This document shows, piece by piece, positions 10,352-40,522 of a DNA stretch of 45,453 nt; the stretch's first letter is position 1; each line of letters opens with the position of its first letter. This stretch comes from Escherichia phage vB_EcoS_SD276. The notes beneath the pieces are model-generated. The model worked only from the letters and a program-made list of their open reading frames with translations, had not been told where the DNA came from and searched no databases. Both the position numbers and the translations under genes were made by a program. The stretch lies in the sequence record OR911938.1; one strand, given 5' to 3'.

Positions 10352-11077
10352 ATGGGTTATCAACTTCCTAACGGGTCTAGCGTCCAGATTGGGTCCGTAC
10401 TGGGCAACGGTATCGCTGTTACGGCAGCTACCAACGCCGCCGCGTCGATCTCTGATCTTACGAAAGGGTGCGTTATCACCTGCGCGGCTTCTCATGGCTT
10501 GAGAGTTGGTGACGTGGTTATGTTCACTAAAACCCCATGGGTCCGTGCGCTGAACCGCGCGTTCATCGTTGGTAAAGTGGCGACTAACGACGTTACGCTG
10601 GCGCGCTTCGACACCTCGGACGTCACCAAATATCCTGCCGGTGCTTTTGGGGCGGGAACCCCAGGCGAAGTGGTGAAAGTGTCGAATTTTATCGACTTCC
10701 CGTATATCACTAACGTTGCCGTGTCGGGTGGCGACCAGCAGACCACCACCTTCCAGCCGTTGCAGGTGAATACCGCGATCAGTCTGAACACCACGAAAAA
10801 CCCGTTGGTCCAGACCTACACTTTCACCCACGACGAAGAAGACCCGATCCGCCCGATTCTGGAAGACCTGGACGACACACAGAAAACCACTGTGATTAAG
10901 TTCACCAACCCGGCAGCGGCAAGCGGCAAAGGTGAGATCCGCATTTACCCGGCTAAGGTGTCTTTCCAGAAGATTCCATCGGCTGAAGTAAACAACGTGG
11001 AGACGGTGGAGTCCACCCTCACTATGCAGTCCGATATGGTTATTTACCGTAAGGACCTGGTTGAAGCGCTGTCGTAA
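10352..11077 (+). CDS. major tail (tube) protein
   Basis: 241 aa; position directly upstream of G/GT chaperone and tape measure; followed by strong terminator. Confidence 0.65.
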   Translation: MGYQLPNGSSVQIGSVLGNGIAVTAATNAAASISDLTKGCVITCAASHGLRVGDVVMFTKTPWVRALNRAFIVGKVATNDVTLARFDTSDVTKYPAGAFGAGTPGEVVKVSNFIDFPYITNVAVSGGDQQTTTFQPLQVNTAISLNTTKNPLVQTYTFTHDEEDPIRPILEDLDDTQKTTVIKFTNPAAASGKGEIRIYPAKVSFQKIPSAEVNNVETVESTLTMQSDMVIYRKDLVEALS

Positions 11078-11107
11078 TTTGGTCGCTTAAATAGCGGGTG
11101 ATAATAT

Positions 11108-11131
11108 GGGGCCAGTACGGCCCCTTTTTTT
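11108..11131 (+). terminator. intrinsic terminator after major tail gene
   Basis: GGGGCC-AGTAC-GGCCCC followed by TTTTTTT. Confidence 0.7.
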
Positions 11132-11147
11132 ATTGGAGAATACGACA

Positions 11148-11510
11148 ATGGCTAAAGCACCACTCTTTACACTCGACCCTAAGCCGACTTTTAAGCTGCC
11201 GATTGAAATCCCGCGCCCCGGCGAAAACGAACCGGGCAAAATGACGTTTACCGTGCGCCACCGCCCTATAGACGAATTTTCGCAGACCATGCAGGATACG
11301 GAGCGCAAGTTGTCGGAATATGACGACAATGATCCTGACGGCTTTAACGTTATGGTCGAGGCCATCATGCACGTCGCAGAAGGCTGGAATCTGCCGGACG
11401 AATTTAACGCGGAGAACGTCCGCCGCCTGGTGGTCAACTATCCGCGCGCGTTCGGCGTGTTCCACACTTCGTACTATCTCGAACTGATGGGATTGCGTGA
11501 AAAAAACTAA
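11148..11510 (+). CDS. tail assembly chaperone (G-like)
   Basis: Small acidic protein upstream of tape measure, ends LREKN* on slippery A_AAA_AAC; track start 11106 lies in terminator hairpin. Confidence 0.65.
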   Translation: MAKAPLFTLDPKPTFKLPIEIPRPGENEPGKMTFTVRHRPIDEFSQTMQDTERKLSEYDDNDPDGFNVMVEAIMHVAEGWNLPDEFNAENVRRLVVNYPRAFGVFHTSYYLELMGLREKN

Positions 11511-11824
11511 TTGAGGCGGCGCGACGCTTTTATGGCCCGCCGCCACCCTCCGAAGATTTAGCCGCGAGTTTATGGGGGGCGGCCCCGGAAGACGTTTGCC
11601 CTCCTGTTGCACTATGGCCCGACAACGCGAAGGTAGTCGCCGTCTTTACAGATTGCTCCACGCAATGGCGCACCGGATTCGGTGGCGCATACGGCATCGA
11701 CTACGGCGTACTGGAATGGCTTTTTAAGATGCACGGCATCGAAAACGCGCAGCGTGCGTTTAAAGATATCAAGCTAATGGAACGCGTTGCGCTGGATGAA
11801 ATGGCGCGGCAGAACCCAGCATAA
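11148..11824 (+). CDS. tail assembly chaperone GT-like fusion via programmed -1 frameshift at A_AAA_AAC (11501-11507)
   Basis: -1 frame is open for 105 codons (LIEAARRFYGPPPPSEDL...MARQNPA*) from the slip site to TAA at 11822-11824 without any in-frame ATG ORF call. Confidence 0.5.
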
Positions 11825-11828
11825 CGGA

Positions 11829-12142
11829 GCGGGACAAGCGGGACGTCCCGCTTGTCCCGCACCTCTAAAAACTGCATATTTACCCGCCAACATTGCATAA
11901 ATTAAAAGCGGGACAGGGTGCTGTCCCGATCTGTCCCGCCCACAAAATGTGAATATCTATTCAGTTTTCGTGCATAAAACAAACGGGACAAAAAGCGGGA
12001 CAGAATGGGGTGGGACAGATCGGGACAGCACCCTGTCCCCGCCAGTGCTGCCGCGGGTTTTAGCCGATCGGGACAGGCGGGACAAAGCCCAGTCTTTCAG
12101 ACTAGACGGGGGTCATTGGCCCCCCTCGTCTGAGACTGAATA
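11829..12142. repeat. GGGACA-rich non-coding element, copy A (32-bp perfect palindrome + repeat array + 53-bp hairpin module)
   Basis: At least 12 GGGACA/TGTCCC hexamers; palindrome GCGGGACAAGCGGGAC|GTCCCGCTTGTCCCGC at 11829-11860; module 12090-12142 identical to 40286-40338. Confidence 0.7.
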
Positions 12143-12206
12143 AGGTTTGTTTTAAATTCGCTGATACAATTAACGACGGCAACTGCATAAAAAGGGGGAC
12201 TGCATA

Positions 12207-14849
12207 ATGGCAGATCAGGCAGCGGGCATCACGCTAAAGGCGGACGTCGCGCAAATTAAAACGGCTAATACTGTGCTGGACACATTTGCGCAGAAATCCG
12301 AGAACACAGAACAGAAAGTAAAGAAATTAAACGACACCCTCGGCAAGTCGAAAAAGGTTACTGGCGACGCCGCGGGCGGAATGGAAAAGTTAGCGACTGA
12401 ATCGCAGCGTGCCGCCGATGGCATGACGAAACAGGAGCGACTCGCCAGCCGATTAGGCATGTCGACCAAAAACCTGGGATTCGCATCGCGGAACGCCGCA
12501 TTCCAGTTACAGGATATTGCGGTGACGCTTGAGATGGGTATGCCGGTGCACCGCGTTATGCTTCAGCAGTTACCGCAGCTTACTGGGGCGTTTGGCGGAC
12601 TGGGTAACACGCTGCGATATGTTGCGGGCTTTCTCGGCCCAGTGGGGATCGGCCTTTCGGCATTAACGGCGACGTTAGGCGTAGGGGTGGCAATTACGAC
12701 CCGCGCAGAGAACCAAGTGGCGGCGCTTAATAAGACGCTGGCGCTGTCCGGTAATATTTCAGGCCTCACAGCTAACCAGATCCTTGTGCTGTCCGAGAAC
12801 GCCGAGCGCATGGGCGGGTCATTTCGCAAGACGCGTGACACAATCCAGGCGCTGGCGGCGGCGGGGGTGAAAGCGGGTGGTGACTTCGGCGCATTGGCTA
12901 AGGTAGTTAATGACTTTGCGAAGGTGTCCAGCCAGCCGATCGAGGATGTGGTAGCGGCGGTAGCGAAGCTGTCAACCGACCCCGTTGGCGGACTGCGTGC
13001 GCTGGCGGATAAGTATCACGTCGTAAACGAAGCGCAGATCCAGCAGGTACAGTCGCTCGTTGATGCGGGTCGTGAGACAGACGCAGTTGCGTTGGCTAAC
13101 AAAACAGCCGCTGCGTCGTTCACCAGCATGACCAATGAGATCAAGGCGAACATGGGTACGCTTGAGCGATCTATGAACGTCGTCACATCGGCAGCCAAAT
13201 CAATGTGGGACGCCATCCTGGATGTGGGCCGCGCGCAGTCCTCCAATGAGTCCGAGATGAAAGCGCGCGAATCACTACAGCGCATGACCACGGCTTACTA
13301 TGCCGAGATGAAAGCGGTAAACGCTGCCGGTGGGGTAATGACTGAAGCGCAGAAAGCACGTATTAACATGCTTTACAGCGAACTGGTCGCCCAGGAAAAG
13401 GTAGTGGCGTCGCTCACCCTGCGTAACCGTGCCGAGCGAGACAACGCCCGCGCCGCAGACGAATCCGCAAAGGCGAACGAGGAGGCCAACCGCACCGCCC
13501 GCGACCGTGCCGCGTTTGAAAAGGAGTACGCAACTAACGCTAAGAAGCGCGCCGACGAGATCGCCCGCCTCAATTTGCTGAATAAGCGCGGCGTTATTGA
13601 TGAGAAAGAGCTTGCCGAGGCGGTGAAGCAGGTAAACGAGCGTTACAAAGACCCCGCACCGAAGAAGGCCGCCGCGGTACGAGTCGATGCCGGTATGAAA
13701 ATGCTGGAAGTCGCACGGAGCGAACTGGCCCAGCTTCGAGAATCCAGCAAGCAGATCGAAGCCAACGCATCTACGCAGACCCGCACGCAACGCGCTCAAG
13801 CGGCCTTAAACAAGCTGATCGCCGACAATGAGCAGTTAATCGCTGCGAGCAAAGAAAGAGCGCTAACGGCAGCAGAAAAGCAGCAGATGGTCGAATTCGG
13901 ACGCGTGAAGGAAGTGCGCGAGCAGATCGTCGAAGAAGCCAAATTGCTGGACGCGAAAGAGAAGCAGGTTAAGGCGCACGCGCAGATCGAGGCCTTCGTT
14001 AAGAACCAGAACGCCGAACTAAAAGCCACAGCCGCTGGCTATGCGCTTTCCACTCGCGAAGCGGCAAACCTGCGCGAAGAATTGCAGCTAATCGATCGTC
14101 TGAAGCGGGTTGGCGCTAACGATACCGATATTGGCAAGGCGGTGTCTAAGCTGCGGGAAGTGCAGGAGGCGCAGACCGGCGCTAACGCCTCGCTATGGGA
14201 TGGATTCAGTCGCGGGCTTAAGGATAGCGTGGATGAAATGGGTAACGGATATACGCAGATGGCGTCGCTCACGAAATTCACATTCAGCGCTATGCAAGAC
14301 ACGATGAACGAGTTTTTCGAGACTGGCAAGCTGAACGCAAAGGATATGGTTAAATCCATCCTAAGCGAGTTAATCAAGCTGGCTACCTCGCAGGCGTTCA
14401 AGTCGATCGTTAGCGCTTTCGGTGGTGACGGCGGCAAAAACGGATTGTTCGGCGCTATCTTCTCCGGCCTCACTAAGAATGCGGACGGCGGAGCGTACGC
14501 AGGAGGCAATCTCGCGGCCTATTCCGGTCAGGTAGTAAGCCAGCCCACCTTTTTCAGTTATGGCGTCCAGGCGTTCGCTAAGGGCGCAGGATTGATGGGT
14601 GAGGCTGGCCCCGAGGCCATCATGCCTCTGAAGCGCGGGCCGGACGGGAAACTGGGCGTTGCCGCTTCTGGCGCAGGCGGGGGTATGATCGTGACGACTA
14701 ACGTTTACACTGGGACCGGTAAAACAGACACCAGTGTGAGCGGCCCAGACCCACGCACCGCGCAGGCGTTCGGCAAGCAAATCACCGAGGCGGTGAAGGC
14801 CGAGATCGTGAAAGCGACGAAACCGGGTGGTGTACTTTACAAACGATGA
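12207..14849 (+). CDS. tail tape measure protein
   Basis: 880 aa, long Ala/Gln/Lys/Glu-rich helical protein with hydrophobic glycine-rich segments, downstream of G/GT. Confidence 0.85.
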   Translation: MADQAAGITLKADVAQIKTANTVLDTFAQKSENTEQKVKKLNDTLGKSKKVTGDAAGGMEKLATESQRAADGMTKQERLASRLGMSTKNLGFASRNAAFQLQDIAVTLEMGMPVHRVMLQQLPQLTGAFGGLGNTLRYVAGFLGPVGIGLSALTATLGVGVAITTRAENQVAALNKTLALSGNISGLTANQILVLSENAERMGGSFRKTRDTIQALAAAGVKAGGDFGALAKVVNDFAKVSSQPIEDVVAAVAKLSTDPVGGLRALADKYHVVNEAQIQQVQSLVDAGRETDAVALANKTAAASFTSMTNEIKANMGTLERSMNVVTSAAKSMWDAILDVGRAQSSNESEMKARESLQRMTTAYYAEMKAVNAAGGVMTEAQKARINMLYSELVAQEKVVASLTLRNRAERDNARAADESAKANEEANRTARDRAAFEKEYATNAKKRADEIARLNLLNKRGVIDEKELAEAVKQVNERYKDPAPKKAAAVRVDAGMKMLEVARSELAQLRESSKQIEANASTQTRTQRAQAALNKLIADNEQLIAASKERALTAAEKQQMVEFGRVKEVREQIVEEAKLLDAKEKQVKAHAQIEAFVKNQNAELKATAAGYALSTREAANLREELQLIDRLKRVGANDTDIGKAVSKLREVQEAQTGANASLWDGFSRGLKDSVDEMGNGYTQMASLTKFTFSAMQDTMNEFFETGKLNAKDMVKSILSELIKLATSQAFKSIVSAFGGDGGKNGLFGAIFSGLTKNADGGAYAGGNLAAYSGQVVSQPTFFSYGVQAFAKGAGLMGEAGPEAIMPLKRGPDGKLGVAASGAGGGMIVTTNVYTGTGKTDTSVSGPDPRTAQAFGKQITEAVKAEIVKATKPGGVLYKR

Positions 14850-40017: not shown

Positions 40018-40127
40018 AATTTGCGCGCATTGGTTGCCGATATGGGAATTCCCATATCGCTAAAAGACTAAAATTTGCGCGCATTGGTTGCCATTTTGAG
40101 TGTTTTTAGCTGGTCGCATTGGTTGCC
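40016..40127. repeat. GCATTGGTTGCC iteron-like direct repeats (3 copies) with inverted copy at 40398-40409
   Basis: AAAATTTGCGCGCATTGGTTGCC at 40016-40038 and 40070-40092, GCATTGGTTGCC at 40116-40127; flanks 20-bp perfect palindrome GATATGGGAATTCCCATATC (40039-40058). Confidence 0.6.
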
Positions 40128-40153
40128 GTGTAGTGTAAATATAATGAATAGTT

Positions 40154-40338
40154 ATGCAGTTTTATTGCATAAAGTAAGCGGGACAAAAAGAGGGACAGAC
40201 CAGGGGCGGGACAAAGCGGGACAGCACCCCCGTCCCGCCCCGGATGACGCGGCCTGGCGGGGAGCGGGACAGGCGGGACAAACCCCAGTCTTTCAGACTA
40301 GACGGGGGTCATTGGCCCCCCTCGTCTGAGACTGAATA
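40154..40338. repeat. GGGACA-rich non-coding element, copy B
   Basis: TTGCATAAA-N-GCGGGACA array ending in the same 53-bp module as copy A (identical by eye). Confidence 0.7.
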
Positions 40339-40493
40339 AAATCCGGGATTGCAAAATACACGGCAGCACATTGGAAATCGCGGTCGTCGACGAACTAGGC
40401 AACCAATGCGAGATGCGGAATGGTGGGTGGAAAATGCAGTTTGCATTTGCAACGGATAGCGATCGACTTTTTCATACGCGTGATTAATATTGG

Positions 40494-40522
40494 TTGCATT
40501 CGTGCCCGCACCCTGCTAGATT
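40494..40522 (+). promoter_or_regulatory. sigma70-like promoter (TTGCAT-N17-TAGATT)
   Basis: Followed by GGTTGCACACCAAC, the same motif that follows the -10 of promoter 6235-6264. Confidence 0.5.

Follow-up and report, generated by a model that had tools for sequence, protein, structure and literature searches.

In this work, we are presenting the analysis of the tail chaperone locus of Escherichia phage vB_EcoS_SD276 (record OR911938.1), performed on the whole stretch of 45,453 nucleotides, which is further referred to as the window. Programmed -1 ribosomal frameshifting is very probably the best explanation for the organization of this locus, and it would provide two products from one translation start: a short chaperone G of 14 kDa and a minor G-T fusion of 225 aa (25.6 kDa). 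A frameshift making such a fusion had been proposed in the initial annotation of the sequence, and the proposal is supported by the anatomy of the locus, by selection acting on the -1 frame, by conservation and by annotated relatives. It is an unannotated case of the well-known G/GT frameshift, ordinary and unsurprising to specialists; both the mechanism and the role in tail assembly are textbook matters, and the practical value lies in the correction of annotation.

None of the eight Dhillonvirus records considered (HK578, phiEco273, NHEP3, ZCEC10, Opt212, Zar3M, welsh and Kenya-K19) contains a joined CDS. In these records the T segment is given as a 'hypothetical protein', as a truncated ORF or is missing, and G is in some of them named 'tail length tape measure protein'. 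A collection of 15 billion proteins contained none of the nine predicted Dhillonvirus fusions, nor the fusion of the window with K in place of N at the junction, and our literature search returned no published proteomic, reporter or tail-assembly data on G/GT for any Dhillonvirus. Tail assembly chaperones can trigger defence, and Dhillonviruses, SECphi4 for example, are used as model phages in studies of anti-phage defence (PMC13434031); work on escape mutants and proteomics would therefore benefit from a correct gene model.

Anatomy of the tail chaperone locus

The window represents a Dhillonvirus-like siphophage. In nucleotide comparison, 11080-12210 shares 93-95% identity with HK578 and SSL-2009a, and likewise with JL1, EP23 and StarDew, with 158 phage records matching in all. 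On the + strand the Phage_tail_3 tube gene is followed by the chaperone ORF G, then by the startless -1 ORF T and by the tape measure gene. G and T are thus the two ORFs located between the major tail protein gene and the tape measure gene, which is the arrangement of the G/GT class (Xu et al. 2004). The following features are referred to in the text:

10352-11077, + strand: major tail (tube) protein gene, the upstream neighbour (Pfam Phage_tail_3, E 2.4e-33; phrog_584, major tail protein, E 7e-75)
11108-11131, + strand: terminator-like hairpin and T run, situated 3' of the tube gene and 5' of G (GGGGCCAGTACGGCCCC, then TTTTTTT), overlapping ATG 11106
11136-11140, + strand: Shine-Dalgarno-like GGAGA, 7 nt 5' of ATG 11148 (sequence reading)
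11148-11510, + strand: G, a G-type tail assembly (tape measure) chaperone ORF of 120 aa, 13.96 kDa, ending in LREKN and a stop (Pfam Phage_TAC_4, E 1.4e-23)
11148-11824, + strand: predicted G-T fusion, join(11148..11507,11507..11824), 225 aa, 25.57 kDa, with the junction ...LREKN-LIEAARR... (reading frames)
11498-11500, + strand: -1-frame TGA, closing the -1 frame directly 5' of the slip site (sequence reading)
11501-11507, + strand: slippery heptamer A_AAA_AAC, in phase with the G frame and including its two final sense codons (Lys-Asn); invariant in 21/21 Dhillonvirus genomes
11507-11824, + strand: T segment in the -1 frame, 105 sense codons from CTA 11507 and then TAA 11822-11824 (DUF1799; phrog_680, E 7e-31)
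11508-11510, + strand: zero-frame TAA directly 3' of the heptamer (sequence reading)
11515-11544, + strand: candidate stimulatory hairpin with a 7-bp GC stem, GGCGGCG (11515-11521) and CGCCGCC (11538-11544), beginning 7 nt after the heptamer (MFE -17.1 kcal/mol)
11826-11863, + strand: strong palindromic hairpin directly 3' of the T stop (-34.2 kcal/mol, z -7.3), with no U tract after it
12207-14849, + strand: tape measure protein gene, 880 aa (TMP_2, E 1.7e-42; Tape_meas_lam_C, E 4.6e-14; phrog_24, E 6e-181)

As the start of G we have taken ATG 11148, which is preceded by GGAGA and is equivalent to the ATG at which gp15 of HK578 starts. ATG 11106, the start given in the mechanical list of open reading frames, was rejected because it sits inside the terminator-like hairpin. 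The protein obtained in this way matches Phage_TAC_4 (PF08748) along its entire length, with residues 1-120 placed on positions 1-124 of the 124 in the model and a score of 83.9 bits against the gathering cut-off of 21.1. Its AlphaFold model (pLDDT 93.3), compared with BFVD, matched annotated tape measure chaperones with TM values of 0.67-0.87, among them gp15 of Edwardsiella phage eiAU, the 129-aa and 236-aa proteins of Serratia phage Scapp and the 210-aa protein of Klebsiella phage Solomon. In the alignment of homologues residue R117, close to the C-terminus, is invariant and K119 nearly so. Within the set of 21 Dhillonvirus genomes, the variable sites of G are distributed over the three codon positions as 10/6/78 of 117 each.

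The 3' end of the zero frame reads ...TTG CGT GAA AAA AAC TAA, in which the run of seven A occupies 11500-11506. The heptamer has the form X_XXY_YYZ in phase with the zero frame, as in the canonical bacterial -1 frameshift signal, so that the position and phase assigned to it in the initial annotation, at the LREKN end of the G-like ORF, are confirmed. The TGA at 11498-11500 closes the -1 frame and the TAA at 11508-11510 closes the zero frame, and for this reason the two frames can be joined only within the heptamer, that is within the 10-nt overlap extending from the first open -1 codon to the zero-frame stop. The -1 frame is open from 11501 to 11821; the 105 codons given for it earlier are correct when counted from CTA 11507. 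The statement that this frame contains no ATG-initiated ORF also holds, as its first ATG, GTG or TTG is encountered only at 11729, 74 codons in.

T is a real coding sequence, as indicated by its DUF1799 domain, the pattern of variation in its codons and its AlphaFold model. The match to DUF1799 (PF08809; E 3.3e-21, 75.7 bits at a cut-off of 26) places residues 23-99 on the complete model (positions 1-80 of 80). In the 21 Dhillonvirus genomes variable sites fall on the three -1-frame codon positions of T as 22/10/71 of 104 each; this pattern resembles that of G, and the shared signature argues for translation of T in the -1 frame, with purifying selection acting on it. The AlphaFold model of T, built with 46 homologues, has a pLDDT of 95.7 and includes a confident helix at residues 2-9, adjoining the slip site and far 5' of the first possible start codon. 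One family, phrog_17368 (213 positions), is matched by G at positions 1-107 and by T at 150-212; since it covers both parts, fused members of the family exist. The length of the open frame was rejected as an argument for significance, because stop-to-stop runs of at least 108 codons are common at 54.6% GC and make up 113 of the 3054 in the window. The -1 ORF stands above chance through its DUF1799 match, its codon-position pattern and the -1 arrangement found in 115 of the 117 loci described below.

The tape measure gene is not adjacent to T, its start at 12207 being located 382 nt downstream. A gap of this length is unusual for such an operon. Within it are found a palindromic hairpin, which is very strong, CGGGACA motifs arranged as an array, and an element of ~200 nt with a second copy near 40.1 kb. 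In the HK578 record the equivalent of the hairpin 11826-11863 is annotated as a terminator. Scans for sigma-70 promoters detected none in the gap between GT and the tape measure gene, nor in the 40-kb repeat region.

Conservation of the slip site and other routes to T

Conservation was followed in a set of 117 loci, comprising the window, 16 GenBank phage regions picked across the identity range and 99 IMG/VR loci. In 115 of them the DUF1799 ORF is shifted by -1 with respect to G, down to ~30% amino acid identity in G, and both the arrangement and the position of the slip are kept across Dhillonvirus, Drexlerviridae and phages of Ralstonia, Serratia and Dickeya. The two exceptions, L049 and L085, are IMG/VR contigs in which the A run is one base shorter; L049 has more frame breaks inside T and hence appears to be a poor assembly, and judging from these features both contigs look like products of homopolymer or assembly errors.

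The heptamer A_AAA_AAC is found directly 5' of the G stop in at least 88 of the 117 loci, a count which covers the commonest tail sequences only, and in every A_AAA_AAC locus listed a stop codon follows AAC directly. Other motifs present before the G stop are GCA AAA GTY (A_AAA_G) in 13 loci, A_AAG in at least 6, including the 6 with GCA AAG GTC, and G_GGA_AAC, which is lambda-like, in one Ralstonia phage. A slippery sequence within the overlap is therefore kept in relatives, as described for the G/GT class. In all 21 Dhillonvirus genomes CGTGAAAAAAACTAA is identical. Loci L119 (58% identity) and L121 (37%) both have A_AAA_AAC followed by TGA, and the tube protein of L121 belongs to a different Pfam family.

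Database searches gave a similar picture. With the predicted fusion as query, tblastn returned 1153 phage records, in 832 of which a single place covers at least 80% of the query; among the matches listed, such a place nearly always consists of two pieces, i.e. two reading frames. ZCEC10, which gave a single piece, was considered as an in-frame fusion and rejected upon inspection, which shows the normal -1 arrangement. When 1.84 billion cluster representatives were searched exhaustively with HMMER, 1176 matches were obtained at E up to 0.001, and the best 150 of these contain G only or T only, except for P0011, a 206-aa in-frame G-T fusion. T-only ORFs which gene callers have extended upstream read '...KKK-L[IV]EAARR...' or '...AGK-L...', and these are -1 readings of A_AAA_AAC and G_GGA_AAC, respectively. 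A word-indexed protein search with the fused query gave 3 matches and no fused proteins.

G and T could also be joined during transcription. RNA polymerase would then add one A within the A7 run, and a minority of mRNAs would encode both parts in one frame, with ...REKK-LIEAARR... at the junction. The site is indeed a run of seven A, homopolymer runs are a known substrate of polymerase slippage (review, PMC5009743), and the product would be of nearly the same size, so that sequence analysis alone cannot tell both mechanisms apart. Nevertheless, we consider this route improbable. Homologues having GCA_AAG_GTC, CAA_AAG, GAA_AAG_TCC or G_GGA_AAC at this position keep the -1 arrangement, although these motifs are far too short for the polymerase, and transcriptional slippage is therefore unlikely as the main route and at most a minor contributor. 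The run is, moreover, strictly phased as X_XXY_YYZ and ends in C, and such phasing is required by ribosomal but not by polymerase slippage. With seven A, the run is also close to the lower limit at which bacterial RNA polymerase slips efficiently.

Even less probable is independent initiation, by which T would be a separate protein starting at ATT 11510 or at the internal ATG 11729. In the HK578 record gp16 is given a CDS of its own, with the equivalent of ATT 11510 as first codon, and short ORFs inside T are called in many records. However, the bases preceding 11510, GAAAAAAACTA, contain no Shine-Dalgarno sequence, and the ATT is not conserved, Drexlerviridae having CTA AAA AGG there, while a start at ATG 11729 would lose about two thirds of DUF1799. 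The pattern L-x-x-A-x-x-x-[FY]-Y..PP, situated right after the slip site, is kept between families and modelled as a confident helix, and wherever the sequence is readable upstream, the slip site is the first point at which the T frame is open. Finally, a homopolymer sequencing error splitting one G-T gene, or a T which is a non-functional remnant, is the least credible reading: it could draw on the shortened A run and changed frame relation of L049 and L085 and on the in-frame P0011, but the A7 run and the frame relation are the same in 21/21 independent Dhillonvirus genomes, which excludes the sequencing error that the initial annotation had named as a possible refutation, the -1 relation extends to 115/117 loci, and purifying selection is acting on T in its -1 frame.

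Candidate stimulators and proposed mechanism of frameshifting

The canonical bacterial -1 frameshift signal includes a stimulatory RNA structure 5-9 nt downstream of the heptamer, and a search for a downstream stem-loop had been suggested at the outset. It led to the hairpin 11515-11544, which is suitably placed 7 nt after the heptamer; its z value is -1.56, with 14 of 200 shuffles folding equally well or better, and it is missing from the centroid structure once longer stretches are folded. Both arms are invariant in the 21 genomes despite five wobble positions, and there are no variable positions at all in 11496-11521. Variable wobble sites number 2 of 12 in 11509-11542 versus 69 of 93 in the rest of T (Fisher p = 1.8e-4, with the boundary set after seeing the data). 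All five wobble bases of the stem are G, the joint probability of which is ~0.02 under the codon usage of this phage.

A hairpin in the same register, GGGCGGTTT...AAACCGCCC, is present in many Drexlerviridae, and the pairing survives amino-acid-changing substitutions there, e.g. from GCG/CCG to GTT/AAG, by which a G-C pair becomes U-A (columns 29/46). In an alignment of 66 sequences 66.8% of cells are paired, and shifting the 3' partners by 1-3 columns lowers this to 35-50%; both phylogeny and the conservation of Ala and Pro codons confound the covariation signal. The hairpin is absent in several lineages with the same heptamer (e.g. L013, L017, L072-L082) and in the A_AAG lineages. On this sequence evidence we regard it as a plausible stimulator, with the chances about evenly divided.

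A second predicted hairpin, 11546-11579, was rejected for lack of conservation, its 5' arm having many variable sites. When 11480-11500 and the alignments were inspected by eye, no upstream Shine-Dalgarno-like stimulator (of GGAG, GAGG or AGGA type, 6-17 nt 5') was seen, and no Rfam family matches anywhere in the window. The zero-frame stop abutting the heptamer could make the ribosome pause additionally while its P site is occupied by the Asn tRNA, and the same protein would result. Lineages with the full A_AAA_AAC often have a GC hairpin at a spacing of 6-7 nt, and A_AAG (Rogunavirus-like) lineages are without one. It is conceivable, if rather unlikely, that the mode of slippage is tuned by the adjacent stop and by structure, and that motif strength is traded against the stimulator to hold a fixed G:GT ratio. 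If that were true, this large family (1176 representative clusters) would constitute a natural titration series for the setting of frameshift efficiency.

The course of events which we propose for programmed -1 frameshifting is as follows. Most ribosomes would translate 11148-11510, terminate at TAA 11508 and release G of 120 aa. A minority would move back by one base on A_AAA_AAC, in which step the Lys tRNA would exchange its AAA codon for the overlapping AAA and the Asn tRNA would leave AAC to pair with AAA. Translation would then go on from CTA 11507 to TAA 11822 and give the 225-aa G-T protein with N followed by LIEAARR at the junction. The slip would probably be aided by the GC hairpin 11515-11544 and possibly by the adjacent stop. 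By analogy to lambda, the tape measure protein would be coated by many copies of G and few of GT, the tube protein would be recruited by the T domain, and neither chaperone would stay in the virion. The slipping of the ribosome, its efficiency, its stimulation by the hairpin and the assembly roles of G and GT are what we infer from the organization described above.

Comparison with known frameshifting systems

In phage lambda, gpG and gpGT are produced by a programmed -1 frameshift (Levin 1993; Xu, Hendrix and Duda 2004, 2013, 2014; summarised in PMC5009743). The G:GT ratio is ~30:1; the tape measure protein is bound by G, alone or within GT, and the tube protein by T (PMC5009743). The locus described here is alike in having two overlapping ORFs between the major tail and tape measure genes, the downstream one startless and in the -1 frame, and a slippery heptamer near the end of the first ORF, from which a short chaperone is expected in abundance and a long fusion as a rare product. 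It differs in several respects. There is no detectable sequence similarity: hhalign gave 0.2% for gpG and 1.2% for gpT with profiles of 44 and 46 sequences, and the only Pfam matches of G and T are to Phage_TAC_4 and DUF1799. The heptamer is A_AAA_AAC and not G_GGA_AAG as in lambda, and the zero-frame stop directly abuts it. The lambda tape measure gene overlaps T, whereas here the two are separated by the repeat-rich gap of 382 nt. Foldseek comparison with solved structures (PDB) gave no match for either the G or the T model. The likeness to the conserved G/GT arrangement upstream of tape measure genes, pointed out in the initial annotation, holds for the arrangement, with the -1 relation found in 115/117 loci, but not for sequence similarity to lambda gpG/gpT, and given the lack of such similarity the pair is an analogue of lambda G/GT in arrangement and, by prediction, in mechanism.

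The slip site itself may be compared with the dnaX and IS signals (A_AAA_AAG or A_AAA_AAC; PMC4066793). In an IS element family of E. coli, A_AAA_AAC has been proven to direct -1 frameshifting (PMC4066793). Common features are an A-rich X_XXY_YYZ, decoding by the Lys tRNA and a downstream hairpin, here a candidate one, at ~6-7 nt. In contrast to dnaX, which has an upstream Shine-Dalgarno-like stimulator, none is seen here; the last codon of the heptamer is AAC (Asn) instead of AAG, and the frameshifted product is the longer one, not the shorter one as in dnaX.

A further system compared is the pair of T1-like phages (Drexlerviridae), whose proteins are homologous to G and T, belonging to the same Phage_TAC_4 and DUF1799 families at 30-45% identity; the chaperones of Scapp and Solomon share the fold of G with TM values of 0.67-0.83. 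Most T1-like phages have A_AAA_AAC directly before the stop, the sense of the junction is K-N followed by L, and many possess the hairpin in the same register. Differences include an insertion of ~15 residues in the Dhillonvirus G, the stem, which is GGCGGCG/CGCCGCC in Dhillonvirus versus GGGCGGTTT/AAACCGCCC in T1-like phages, and the gap between T and the tape measure gene, 382 nt here versus ~20-40 nt in Drexlerviridae. A conserved frameshift is mentioned in the paper on Citrobacter phage Stevie (PMC4319613), the record of Serratia phage Smarc4 contains a joined CDS named 'pre-tape measure frameshift protein', and UniProt holds long and short 'tape measure chaperone' entries for Scapp (129 aa and 236 aa) and Solomon (210 aa). 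Judged by their sequences, G and T are thus homologous to the "tape measure chaperone" pair of T1-like phages, in which the frameshift is already annotated.

The 5′ end of the chaperone gene and frame exceptions among relatives

A terminator-like structure lies between the gene of the major tail (tube) protein and that of the tail chaperone G.

11108-11131, terminator-like hairpin plus T7 run in the intergenic region upstream of G

This hairpin, which might reduce expression of the chaperone compared with that of the tube protein, also rules out the ATG at 11106, proposed by a mechanical ORF list, as the true start of G.

Departures from the -1 arrangement of G and the downstream segment T were found in a few related sequences. 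In two IMG/VR contigs, L049 and L085 (1480-1580 in each), the A run of the slip site is shorter by one base (GTAAAAACTAAAA), which shifts T to frame +1 with respect to G; L049 carries additional frame breaks within T. The short runs probably stem from assembly errors at the homopolymer. Among the best 150 of 1176 representative clusters the sole in-frame G-T fusion was P0011, a protein of 206 aa devoid of the usual C-terminal motif of G, ELxGxRxKN, and joined directly to LRAAVRAIY. It could be a natural fusion made without frameshifting, or else an assembly artefact.

Annotation of the locus in related phages

Comparison of the GenBank records of relatives L001-L006, L117 and L118 revealed inconsistent annotation of the chaperone/T locus. 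In the Dhillonvirus HK578, gp16 is annotated as starting from ATT, a codon overlapping the stop of G, while in the records of other relatives T is omitted or short spurious ORFs are called within it. In two records, phiEco273 and NHEP3, the chaperone is entered as 'tail length tape measure protein', the description that PHROG also gives for phrog_569, phrog_680 and phrog_17368.

A repeat-rich gap and a duplicated element near 40 kb

The end of T is separated from the tape measure gene by a non-coding region rich in repeated motifs, which comprise the following features.

11825-12206, non-coding gap of the tail operon, 382 nt from the T stop to the tape measure start
11826-11863, near-perfect palindrome (19+19 nt) built of two CGGGAC units, directly 3′ of the T stop
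11910-11941 and 12008-12039, arms of a 32-nt inverted repeat inside the gap, 97% complementary

The palindrome has a predicted folding energy of -34.2 kcal/mol (z -7.3). Its equivalent is annotated as a rho-independent terminator in the HK578 record, although no U tract follows the copy in the window. CGGGACA occurs 21 times in the whole window against 6.4 ± 2.6 expected, and 10 of these occurrences, counted on both strands, fall inside the gap. Variation within the locus is greatest in the gap, yet of 20 Dhillonvirus relatives 19 retain 8-12 GGGACA/TGTCCC copies there; L109, a locus which ends 109 nt into the gap, has three.

Part of the gap is duplicated in a distant region of the genome, next to further repeats.

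11950-12143 and 40140-40337, two copies of an element of about 200 nt in direct orientation
40020-40130 and about 40395-40500, iteron-like repeats, three direct copies of GCGCATTGGTTGCC

The aligned stretches containing the two element copies (11940-12210 and 40120-40400) share 83% overall identity, with no differences in the 3′-terminal ~70 nt of the element. Each copy combines a TGCATAAA box with a long hairpin and several CGGGACA motifs; the hairpin at 12090-12143 has a predicted folding energy of -30.8 kcal/mol (z -3.2), and across the relatives the hairpin stems are near-constant while the loop varies freely. A search of the window against Rfam gave no match for the element, and scans of the gap and the 40-kb repeat region detected no sigma-70-like promoter. 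The iteron-like repeats are located just upstream of a second CGGGACA cluster; beyond the direct copies lies at least one in inverted orientation (GGCAACCAATGCG), and this region could be an origin or operator. The CGGGACA-rich gap could be a protein-binding array or regulatory RNA. In T1-like relatives, by contrast with the 382 nt seen here, the equivalent gap spans only about 20-40 nt.
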